From the NCBI GenBank assembly GCA_000165345.1, contig CM000435.1, positions 960,001-1,024,000 on the forward strand: a DNA stretch of 64,000 nucleotides, read 5' to 3'. Made by a program: the position numbers and the translations under genes. Positions 31,608-38,932 of the stretch are shown here, piece after piece. The notes under the pieces were generated by a model. It made no database searches and was not told the DNA's origin. It was given only the letters and a program-made list of their open reading frames with translations. How positions within the stretch are numbered: position 1 is the stretch's first letter; each line of letters begins with the position of its first letter.

Positions 31608-32503
31608 TTAATCATCCTTTATATCAAGTTCTGAATATTCTTCCTCAGCAATATTATCATACTCTTCCTCATCCTGGTAATCTCCATACCTTTCATTTCT
31701 ATTCAAATTTAAGTTTGAGTTGTTATTTTTAACAAAGTTTGTTGGATGTTCAAATAGAACTCCTTCTTGTGCAGCAGTATTGTTCCCCCTATACATTTGC
31801 TGAATTCCACCAGAGTATACTAACTCAGGTGGGACAATGGTCTTAAATACCTGGTTACAGTTTGGGCAAACTTCCATGTCTTCTTCTTTGTCAGAAAGAC
31901 AGGCTCCACATGCTCTTCTATTAATAATCCAATCAAAATCATTATCTTCTTCTAAGTCTTGAAGAGAAACATCATTTCCAATGCATACGCCATCAACAAA
32001 AATTTGGGGTAGTAAAACGGTCCCATCCGATTCTAATGGATCCATTTTTAAAAGTCCTTCATTTTTTAAATTATCAAATATTTCAGAGTCTCCCAAATCT
32101 ATTTAATAAAATATTATAATGCATAATTACTAGTTACAAGGTTATCTCACCAAGTTTAAAGAACATATTTTTGGCTTTTATTCTTTTAACTTGACGAGGT
32201 CAGAATAAACTTACTTGCAGCAATTGAGAAATCTCTATTTGCATCAATCTGATAGTATACGACTCCTTTCACATCAAGGAATTGCTTTGCTCTTAAAGAC
32301 CCATAAAAATGCCTTCTTATTCCGCTCAAAGAAGTGTGAATTAGTACAACCTACAACAGAAAAAAGAGTGCTTATTGTGTGTAAACCCTAAATGCAGGCT
32401 AAAATTTGCAATACATTTTTGCATAATTCATTCCTGCATCTTTTATATTACTTACCTCTGCAGGCGTAGCTTGTACATCTGATCCTATTCCTTTTTCGTA
32501 CAT
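31608..32503 (-). CDS. Three-exon gene: glutaredoxin-fold protein of SH3BGR/GRXCR type with a C-terminal CxxC...CxxC zinc-ribbon and an acidic tail. complement(join(31608..32098,32215..32350,32456..32503)).
   Basis: Exon 1 is ATG..GAG (MYEKGIGSDVQATPAE) followed by GTAAGT. Exon 2 encodes VVLIHTSLSGIRRHFYGSLRAKQFLDVKGVVYYQIDANRDFSIAA. It begins after ttttttctgttgtAG and ends GCA A|GTAAGT. Exon 3 begins after ttttattaaatAG and equals the track ORF 31608..32096, which contains LLPQIFVDGVCIGN and CGAC...CPNC. All phases fit (0, then 1). Introns are 105 and 116 nt. Confidence 0.55.
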
Positions 32504-32684
32504 TTTAAATGGCTGTGTAAATGAAACTTATTTGAGGTAAAGACAGAATATAACAGGCTTTGAATTTACTCTCTTTGTTCTGAGCTTCAAATTCTGTAAT
32601 TATCTAGAATTTCAATTTATAGACAATTTTACATTTCATATCTTTTTACTTGTAAATAGACTTATTTTCATGTCAAAATAACAT

Positions 32685-32708
32685 ACCGCCAAATATTGCC
32701 GCCGACAA
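32685..32708. promoter_or_regulatory. Paired CCGCCAAA / TTGCCGCCGAC boxes in the 473-bp divergent promoter between the GRX-like gene (32503, minus) and the RPB11-like gene (32977, plus). ATTTTGGCGGTAAGA lies at 32915-32929.
   Basis: ACCGCCAAATATTGCCGCCGACAA is the only GC-rich patch in a spacer that is about 85 percent AT. Confidence 0.45.
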
Positions 32709-32976
32709 TTGTAATATTTTTTAAATTATAGGTCAATTTCAATTGGTACTTAAAAAATAAAAGAAGAAAGTTTTGTTGGGAAATAACATACAATGAGTTT
32801 TTGAGTGTGTTTGATGTTATGAAATTGCAAATAATTTTTTGATACTTTTGTGTTCGTTTTTTAAAGTTTTGATCCGTGTTAATATTTAGAATAGTTTTTC
32901 TACAATGTTATGTAATTTTGGCGGTAAGATAGTGATGTAATTAAAATTTAGCTAGAATAATAAAAAAGAACAAAAC

Positions 32977-33467
32977 ATGGGGAAGTTCTTTACAGTTAAT
33001 AAACCTGATGTAAATCTACTTGATATTCCTGCTGGATCTGAGAAGTAAGTTTGAATTATACTAATATTGCTGACTTGTATAATTTGCTGACCAATTTCAG
33101 AGTACAGTGGAAAGTGGAATCTAGAGTTCCTTGTTGTGGTAGTTTTATGATAATGCTTGAAGATCATACACTTGGAAACCTAATTACAACGTAAGTTCAT
33201 TAGTTTTAATTTGTGAGGTTTAAACTGGTAATACTTATCTTAATATTTTCTCTATTCAGACAATTATTACGTGATCCAAATGTCATATTTGCAGGGTACA
33301 AAGTACCTCACCCATTAGAGCCTCTTGTGCAAATTAGAATACAAACAAGAGAAAACACTACTCCATTTGTTGCGATTCAAAATGCTATTAAATCGATCCA
33401 AATGGAGTCACAGGTAATATTGAATTCATTTAAAGATTCAATGAGAAACTATCCTATATACAAATAG
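32977..33467 (+). CDS. Three-exon gene: DNA-directed RNA polymerase subunit of the RPB11/AC19 (RpoL) family, about 120 aa. join(32977..33044,33101..33190,33260..33467).
   Basis: MGKFFTVNKPDVNLLDIPAGSE|K VQWKVESRVPCCGSFMIMLEDHTLGNLIT|T QLLRDPNVIFAGYKVPHPLEPLVQIRIQTRENTTPFVAIQNAIKSIQ... The donors are AA|GTAAGT (33045) and AC|GTAAGT (33191). The acceptors are tttcAG (33099-100) and tctattcAG (33258-59). Both introns are phase 2. The EDHTLGN and AGYKVPHPLE...IRIQT signatures define the family. The track shows only the last exon, as 33213..33467. Confidence 0.65.
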
Positions 33468-33571
33468 AGAATAATTGAATTAGACTATAGTCGTTATTAT
33501 TTAATCTATAATTCTTCTTTCCAATTGTTCTTTTGTTTCATATTTATATTTAGATAAATTACTAGCAATAA

Positions 33572-34313
33572 CTAACAACAGCTTGATGTTGATTGTTTCT
33601 GGTTATTACCTTTTGAAAGTTGGATCCCTACTGAAGTATTATTAGCAAAACATCCTAAAGTAATTTTGAAATTAGGAAATAAAGTTAGAAGGATTAATCC
33701 ATCAATCTTTGATAAACTTACCATTCATATCTAAATTTGATGAGTTATCTTTCATCTTTTGATTATATACTTCCTGCAATAAATGCTCAAAAATATGTTT
33801 AACATTACATCTTGTGACTGCAGATGCTTCCGAAAAGAATAAGTTATTTTCTTGGGCAAAGTTTGCAGCTATATCAAATGGGACTTCTCTTTTACTTGGG
33901 TCCTTCTCAACTAAATCCAATTTATTCCCTACAAGCATCACAACAATATCAGGTTCCGAATTCTGCTTAATGTCCTCCAGCCACTTTGAAGCATTCAGAA
34001 AGCTTGATTTACGAGTTATATCATACACCAATAATGCACCCACAGATCGCCGATAGTGTGCCCTTGTGATTGCTCTATATCGTTCCTGCCCTGCTGTATC
34101 CCATATCTGAGCTTTCACTGTTCCTCCAATTGAAAGAGGCACTGTTCTTGTAGCAAACTCAACTCCTATTGTTGGTTGTGGAGTTTTTGGCAGAGCATCT
34201 CTTGTATATCGTGATAATAAATGAGTTTTCCCAACTGTTGCATCTCCTACTAATATGATCTTATAAAGATGGTCATATTCATCTGGTGAAGAACCCATTG
34301 AGTGTTTTTTCAA
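33572..34313 (-). CDS. Rab11-family small GTPase with a 3' terminal exon supplying the C-terminal CC prenylation motif. complement(join(33572..33654,33722..34313)).
   Basis: G1 GDATVGKT, G3 WDTAGQE, G4 GNKLDL and the Rab11-like YRAITRAHYRRSVGALLVYDIT. The track ORF ends MNGKFIKD* with no cysteine. The sequence at that point is AAT G|GTAAGTTTATC, a perfect donor. A 67-nt intron ends tttcaaaattactttAG. The next exon reads in phase (G)CFANNTSVGIQLSKGNNQKQSTSSCC then TAG. The track start 34313 is TTG, so the true start may be the internal MGSS ATG. The E2F-like box AATTGGCGCCAAATCG lies about 105 nt upstream. Confidence 0.75.
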
Positions 34314-38868: not shown

Positions 38869-38932
38869 AAATTCTAATTTTACAAGCTTAAAAACTACAA
38901 AGTTTGGCGGTAAAATCCAAATAATTGTGGGT

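Follow-up and report, generated by a model that had tools for sequence, protein, structure and literature searches.

A head-to-head pair of genes, each split by two short spliceosomal introns, lies within a 64,000-nucleotide (nt) stretch of Cryptosporidium parvum chromosome 7 (GenBank assembly GCA_000165345.1, contig CM000435.1, positions 960,001 to 1,024,000 of the forward strand; referred to here as the window). The + strand gene corresponds to cgd7_4370 and encodes the predicted RNA polymerase subunit RPB11, the - strand gene corresponds to cgd7_4360 and encodes a predicted glutaredoxin-like (GRX-like) protein, and the spacer between their start codons carries predicted E2F-like sites. We put the probability of this account of the locus at about 0.88. 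In the proposed arrangement, the two protein-coding genes would be transcribed away from each other from one promoter region of 473 bp, and removal of two short spliceosomal introns from each transcript would open the reading frames. Over 6,491 bases the locus is identical to GenBank entry CP141124.1 (assembly GCA_035232765.1), with 0 mismatches, and the GC content of the region is ~30%. This AT-rich composition and the canonical GTAAGT...AG intron ends mark the region as eukaryotic.

Splice structure of the two genes

The exons of both genes were joined mechanically, and orthologous loci from C. meleagridis, C. hominis, C. canis, C. ubiquitum, C. bovis, C. xiaoi, C. ryanae, and C. muris were compared. 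The term "eight species" denotes the intestinal-clade set, which consists of the window and seven other species, with C. muris handled separately. The elements of the two genes are as follows, with all four introns beginning with GTAAGT and ending with CAG or TAG.

32977..33044, + strand: RPB11 exon 1, 68 nt, with the ATG start, encoding residues 1-22 plus two bases; gap-free in the eight species and present in C. muris
33045..33100, + strand: RPB11 intron 1, 56 nt, GTAAGT..CAG; ends invariant, interior length and sequence variable among species
33101..33190, + strand: RPB11 exon 2, 90 nt, carrying the EDHTLGN motif
33191..33259, + strand: RPB11 intron 2, 69 nt, GTAAGT..CAG
33260..33467, + strand: RPB11 exon 3, 208 nt including the TAG stop
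32456..32503, - strand: GRX-like exon 1, 48 nt, with the ATG at 32503; kept in the eight species
32351..32455, - strand: GRX-like intron 1, 105 nt, GTAAGT..TAG; ends invariant, length roughly halved in C. bovis, C. xiaoi, and C. ryanae
32215..32350, - strand: GRX-like exon 2, 136 nt, encoding the first strand, the cysteine-free 'active-site' loop TSLSG, and the first helix
32099..32214, - strand: GRX-like intron 2, 116 nt, GTAAGT..TAG
31608..32098, - strand: GRX-like exon 3, 491 nt including the stop, encoding the remaining GRX fold, the zinc ribbon, and the acidic tail

Joining the three RPB11 exons gives an uninterrupted product of 121 amino acids, two more than the 119 proposed in a preliminary description of the window, and joining the three GRX-like exons gives an intact product of 224 amino acids. 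The RPB11 product is letter-for-letter identical to QOY40762.1 (cgd7_4370) and other deposited entries, and the GRX-like product to QOY40761.1 (CPATCC_003651, cgd7_4360), CPHLJ_7g4360, and other entries. Verbatim copies of both spliced products are present in GenBank and UniProt, from C. parvum and close relatives, and the deposited gene spans of 491 bp for RPB11 and 896 bp for the GRX-like gene match the models in the window. The preliminary description had proposed a head-to-head pair, both members spliced, with junctions at 33044/33101, 33190/33260, 32456/32350, and 32215/32098, and the identity of the joined products to the two GenBank proteins shows that it placed these junctions correctly. 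Its estimate of two introns per gene, with lengths of 56-116 nt, agrees with the measured 56, 69, 105, and 116 nt, and its RPB11 exon lengths are those obtained by mechanical joining. For the two genes together, the list of open reading frames (ORFs) contains just an 84-amino-acid piece (33213-33467), which is the largest single ORF of RPB11 as had been stated, and a 162-amino-acid piece with a TTG start (31608-32096), correctly recognized earlier as the last exon of the GRX-like gene.

Exons and introns at this locus differ sharply in how they are conserved. All four introns occupy the same positions and have invariant GT and AG ends in the eight species, and in C. muris both RPB11 introns are retained in the same phase. 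In eight-species alignments the exons of both genes have 0 gap columns and 78-99% identity, with changes found mainly at third positions, whereas the introns contain as many as 43 gap columns and drop to 42-53% identity. Across all eight fetched orthologous loci the genes follow one order (myosin, GRX-like, RPB11, Rab, NudC), and the head-to-head arrangement of the GRX-like and RPB11 genes is found in 10 Cryptosporidium species. In a published table comparing C. parvum with C. hominis, the values for cgd7_4360 and cgd7_4370, read as ratios of nonsynonymous to synonymous substitution (dN/dS), are 0 and 0.058 (PMC4637869, supplement). The annotation that carries both models states that its introns are 100% supported by RNA sequencing (PMC8744675). 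A point against the account is that RNA support for the four introns comes from this annotation-wide statement and not from reads at the locus. Together, the contrast in conservation between exons and introns, the identity of the products to deposited proteins, and the annotation-wide RNA-sequencing statement indicate that the introns are real. The contrast between exons and introns, like the invariance of GC patch 1 in the spacer described below, goes beyond what chance would produce.

E2F-like sites and a conserved block in the spacer

The spacer between the two start codons is 473 bp long, the length given in the preliminary description, and has a GC content of 25%. It contains two GC-rich patches and a conserved AT-rich block.

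32504..32976, no strand: divergent promoter region, the 473-bp spacer between the two start codons
32684..32703, - strand: GC patch 1, which reads GGCGGCAATATTTGGCGGTA, with GGCGG cores at 32686-32690 and 32699-32703, 13 nt apart
32916..32927, + strand: GC patch 2, TTTTGGCGGTAA, an E2F-like site facing RPB11, 54-57 nt before its ATG
32654..32677, no strand: AT-rich block of 24 nt, AAATAGACT(3 variable bases)ATTTCATGTCAA, the flanking parts of which are invariant in the eight species

The GC patches are predicted E2F-like sites, which are the known dominant promoter motif of the C. parvum genome. Both patches carry TTTGGCGGT, in opposite orientations, and one patch with the E2F-like word TTTGGCGGTA faces each gene. 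A candidate E2F site of the TTTSSCGS type, TTTGGCGG, is found at 32686-32693 on the - strand and at 32917-32924 on the + strand, with conservation among species. The E2F-like sites of patch 1 face the GRX-like gene at a distance of 183-200 nt from its ATG. The preliminary description counted exactly two GC patches in the spacer and did not identify them as E2F-like promoter motifs. This count holds for patches with GGCGG, which within the spacer occurs only in the two listed here, but the number of patches depends on the threshold, and 12-nt windows with a GC content of at least 50% reveal a third, marginal patch at 32577-32588.

Among upstream motifs in C. parvum, the E2F-like ones show the strongest over-representation; the two forms described are motif 3, DTTGSCGCCH, and motif 4, TTTGGCGGGAAV (Oberstaller et al, 2013, PMC3734150), in a paper whose supplements list neither gene of the pair. 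E2F-like motifs also dominate the C. parvum peaks detected by the assay for transposase-accessible chromatin with sequencing, and annotation assigns more than half of these peaks to bidirectional promoters (bioRxiv 10.1101/2025.01.17.633476). The spacer sites resemble motifs 3 and 4 in having a T-run followed by a GGCGG core, and in lying in intergenic DNA upstream of genes on either strand. In the window, GGCGG occurs 19 times where 7.9 occurrences are expected, and none of 100 shuffles reached 19. Intergenic DNA makes up 19% of the window and contains 15 of the 19 GGCGG pentamers and 22 of the 24 GGCGC pentamers. Both cores of patch 1 (CCGCC on the + strand) are invariant in the eight species, and the full motif of patch 2 lies at a fixed 54-57 nt from the RPB11 ATG in five species. 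From these matches we infer that E2F/DP may bind the spacer and co-regulate the two genes. E2F/DP at both patches would most likely set up an open-chromatin promoter region that drives both.

Elsewhere in the window, GGCG[GC] pentamers are found at, for example, 1863, 10525, 12053, 38906, 41611, 44780, 44997, and 55534, with many of the pentamers in TTT..GGCGGGAA contexts. The TTTGGCGGTAA core of the spacer patches recurs at 38903-38913, between two - strand genes.

The AT-rich block lies 8-10 nt from patch 1. A 50-nt stretch at the block has 33 invariant columns, a number not attained in any of 5000 shuffles. No second copy of the block was detected in the window, and it matches no Rfam family. 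On the GRX-like sense strand the block includes an invariant ATG, ~150 nt upstream of the start codon. The block could be an upstream ORF start, a transcript start, or the site of a second factor.

Several observations weigh against the assignment of the GC patches to E2F. The best-conserved part of the spacer is the AT-rich block, which the E2F model does not explain. The spacer sites have a T after GGCGG where published motif 4 has a G (TTTGGCGGT vs TTTGGCGGG). In the C. bovis clade patch 2 is cut to TGCGG, with GCGG kept in C. bovis, C. xiaoi, and C. ryanae. The C. muris spacer is 1.46 kb long, has a GC content of 16%, and contains a single CCGCC, near the GRX-like gene. The GC patches could instead be sites of another factor, or part of the core promoter or transcript start, with the AT-rich block as the real control element. 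This alternative draws on the invariant 24-nt block at 32654-32677, which exceeds all other parts of the spacer in conservation, and on the one position at which the spacer sites depart from the published motif. Nonetheless, we consider it improbable, because the GGCGG cores are themselves invariant in the eight species, the form of a T-run plus GGCGG fits both the plant and the C. parvum E2F consensus (PMC3734150), and GGCG[GC] pentamers in the window are nearly confined to intergenic DNA.

The GRX-like protein and RPB11

The 224-amino-acid product of the - strand gene would consist of a redox-dead glutaredoxin fold, a four-cysteine zinc ribbon, and an acidic tail. A thioredoxin/glutaredoxin fold is present in this protein. 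In an AlphaFold model calculated with a 40-member family alignment (predicted local distance difference test, pLDDT, of 81), structure comparison finds glutaredoxins and SH3BGRL proteins to be about equally good matches to residues 17-120, and the C-terminal part of the model has no match among solved structures. The 40-member alignment was needed for this model, as prediction from six Cryptosporidium sequences alone gave a pLDDT of 30. The active-site loop reads TSLSG, without CxxC or CxxS at the start of helix 1, and there is no cysteine before residue 100. The only cysteines in the protein are C100, which varies among species, and the four of the zinc ribbon.

31857..31910, - strand: zinc ribbon CxxC-x10-CxxC (C125, C128, C139, C142), from the 40-member alignment, with a model pLDDT above 90

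Six residues do not vary in the 40-member alignment (P92, Q93, D97, G98, C125, and C128), and conservation is at least 90% at C139 and C142. This pattern points to the cis-proline region of a glutaredoxin fold and to a CxxC-x10-CxxC ribbon. Because of the TSLSG loop and the lack of cysteine before residue 100, the predicted protein cannot act as a thiol-disulfide oxidoreductase by the usual mechanism. It would instead be a non-enzymatic adaptor that binds zinc. Counting against this part of the account, the role of the protein is pure inference, and literature searches by gene identifier (cgd7_4360/4370, cpbgf_7004360/70, and CPATCC tags) returned no paper text on either gene.

The preliminary description had called the protein GRX/SH3BGR-like and had posed the choice between a GRXCR-type and an SH3BGR-type protein. 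The glutaredoxin fold stood, and the fold domain proved nearest to GRXCR. We compared the family profile with real, named GRXCR proteins from the databases. With hhalign, an alignment of 11 of these proteins matched with a probability of 98.2%, E = 5.8e-14, and a score of 98 over 97 columns, limited to the fold domain, and single GRXCR sequences gave scores of 64 and 61. A verified SH3BGRL3 sequence gave a probability of 75% and a score of 35. The profile scored 56 against an unverified Escherichia coli Grx3 sequence. GRXCR1 and GRXCR2 of animals and plants also share the layout of the Cryptosporidium protein, with a glutaredoxin fold that lacks the CxxC active site, a cysteine-rich segment directly after it, and similar strand-loop-helix motifs (VVLIHTSLSGIRRHF vs VVIYTTSLRVVRKTF).

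The tail separates the two groups. In the Cryptosporidium protein it is a single CxxC-x10-CxxC ribbon followed by a conserved VPPE..Y.G..QQ segment, and it is not the GRXCR tail domain PF23733 (GRXCR1-2_C). Searched with E values up to 10 allowed, that profile found no match in the Cryptosporidium, Besnoitia, and Chromera proteins, and it matched 0 of the 40 family members; the positive controls, cat GRXCR1 and a jujube homologue, scored 39 and 72 bits. The SH3BGR profile PF04908 likewise did not match the Cryptosporidium protein at E up to 10, and matched one of the 40 family members (E = 0.009). The protein is thus predicted to be GRXCR-like in its fold domain and layout, not of SH3BGR type, and outside the GRXCR family as Pfam defines it. 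A literature search for GRXCR1 with apicomplexan terms found nothing relevant.

That the - strand gene encodes a functional glutaredoxin or an SH3BGR family member appears very unlikely. A working enzyme is contradicted by the TSLSG loop, which is cysteine-free in 6 of 6 Cryptosporidium sequences, and by a Pfam Glutaredoxin score of 18.9 bits, below the cut-off of 22.9. Membership of SH3BGR is contradicted by the absence of a Pfam match in the Cryptosporidium protein and by the weak SH3BGRL3 score of 35, compared with 61-64 for single GRXCR sequences and 98 for the GRXCR alignment. In addition, we know of no SH3BGR protein with a zinc ribbon.

The GRX-like protein belongs to what appears, from homologue searches, to be an unnamed family of apicomplexans, chromerids, colpodellids, and dinoflagellates. 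A word-index homologue search found Cryptosporidium sequences only. A full HMMER scan of 1.84 billion representatives, with a profile built from six species, returned 108 relatives. We looked up 10 of these: two were environmental or assembly contigs, and eight came from Besnoitia, Babesia, Theileria, Cardiosporidium, the gregarine Ancora, Alphamonas, Chromera, and the dinoflagellate Gymnodinium, where they are annotated as hypothetical or 'glutaredoxin domain-containing'. In some relatives the GRX-like plus zinc-ribbon module forms the C terminus of far longer proteins (650-2,050 amino acids), and a Pfam scan of these long multi-domain relatives detected no partner domains.

The protein is retained even in the most reduced genomes, and its dN/dS in the comparison of C. 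parvum with C. hominis is 0, so an essential role as an adaptor is possible. Glutaredoxin folds that lack the cysteines in other proteins, namely GRXCR1/2, SH3BGRL, and Aip5, act on the actin cytoskeleton, which makes a cytoskeletal role conceivable here as well. Combining these points, the GRX-like gene could be the Cryptosporidium member of an old, widespread, and unnamed myzozoan family, represented in apicomplexans including Babesia, Theileria, Besnoitia, and gregarines, and in Chromera, Alphamonas, and dinoflagellates. Its product would join a GRXCR-type redox-dead domain to a four-cysteine ribbon of its own and a conserved tail, as a possibly essential adaptor with a conceivable cytoskeletal role, and the adjoining 24-nt block may be a gene-specific control element or an upstream ORF start. 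We propose this combined picture tentatively, at somewhat less than even odds.

The + strand product was described at first as RPB11/AC19-like. That fold assignment was right, and comparison with solved structures narrows it to RPB11. The product matches Pfam PF13656 (RNA_pol_L_2) over residues 37-106 with 93.1 bits, against a cut-off of 27. Its six best matches among solved structures are all RPB11, from animals, plants, and fission yeast, with scores of 64-84 bits and alignments that run from residue 14-19 to ~115. RPAC2/AC19 chains score 46-60 bits, with alignments that start only at residue 30-36. The product resembles RPB11 (POLR2J; the family of RBP11-like proteins and archaeal subunit L) in its length class (121 amino acids vs 115-123), in its collinearity with solved RPB11 chains, and in its EDHTLGN and YKVPHPLE..IRIQT signatures. 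Nothing notable in the protein sets it apart from RPB11, and the C. parvum gene differs in being split by two short introns.

It is highly improbable that the small subunit is instead AC19/RPAC2, which is common to polymerases I and III. The two families share the EDHTLGN..PHP..IRIQT core, and budding yeast provides the single exception to the ranking, with AC19 at 60.2 bits, 3.5 more than Rpb11 at 56.7. In contrast, human, plant, and fission-yeast RPB11 outscore RPAC2 from the same species, or from a comparable one, by 18-28 bits and align over the additional N-terminal residues, from 14-19 instead of 30-36. Furthermore, 0 of 34 relatives in a large protein collection bear the name RPAC2 or AC19, and those with specific names are called RPB11 or Pol II subunit. 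The predicted polymerase subunit is therefore RPB11, not AC19. In RNA polymerase II, the small subunit RPB11 and its partner RPB3 together make up the assembly platform, and the + strand gene would supply this partner of RPB3.

Annotation and genomic setting of the pair

The idea that gene decay left the short ORFs as fragments, and that the 'introns' are accidental GT..AG pairs, has nothing in its favor beyond the absence of any single long ORF and is ruled out by the comparative data, with the exact products annotated in several species, and the frame, junction positions, and splice ends kept in 8-9 species under strong purifying selection.

The preliminary description called both genes invisible or mis-drawn. 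This applies to the bacterial-style ORF track, to the 2004 Iowa II models, which are mis-drawn at 115 and 145 amino acids, and to the annotations of several other species. It does not apply to the current C. parvum, C. hominis, C. tyzzeri, and C. meleagridis annotations, in which both genes are drawn correctly. RPB11 is mis-drawn in older annotations and in those of other species because two short introns split the gene. The C. muris RPB11 model (- strand, ~1485-1545 of the fetched locus) takes an internal ATG as its start and runs on through intron 1, and an intact exon 1 (MGKFFIVNKPDVNQLDIPLNAEK) lies just upstream of the annotated start. RPB11 models are truncated in C. felis (95 amino acids) and C. 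serpentis (83 amino acids). The first two exons are missing from the GRX-like models of C. ryanae, chipmunk genotype I, C. hominis TU502, and C. parvum Iowa II, and one mis-drawn GRX-like model among the fetched loci has 166 amino acids. A scan for bacterial promoters and terminators gave chance-level results and is irrelevant to eukaryotic DNA.

In C. parvum ~10.8% of genes have introns, in agreement with the earlier statement that most genes are intronless; the mean intron is 99 bp long, and the mean intergenic region is 552 bp with a GC content of 25% (PMC4637869). By these genome-wide means, the intron sizes and the 473-bp spacer of the pair are typical. The neighboring Rab11-like GTPase gene (33572-34298, - strand) is spliced as well, with a 67-nt intron (33655-33721, GTAAGT..TTTAG) that links a 203-amino-acid ORF to a short last exon and yields a 219-amino-acid product with a terminal CC prenylation motif. 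The GRX-like, RPB11, and Rab11-like genes thus form a run of three consecutive intron-bearing genes, and by our own arithmetic, which assumes independence, ~5 such runs are expected in ~3,860 genes at 10.8% per gene. RPB11 and the Rab gene are convergent, and only 104 bp (33468-33571) separate their stop codons, so that their 3' ends must be very close or overlapping.

The two gene models and the E2F-like promoter motif have already been published, as has the low density of introns in this genome. With these central points in the public record, the finding is already known; it is correct and ordinary, and its biological weight is small. Its practical value is as a check of method: short spliced genes such as these come out truncated in bacterial-style ORF tracks and in several public annotations, and reading the splice signals recovered both genes correctly. 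For apicomplexan biologists, the locus may be of interest for the unnamed family that combines a glutaredoxin fold with a zinc ribbon, and for the invariant AT-rich element beside the predicted E2F-like sites.
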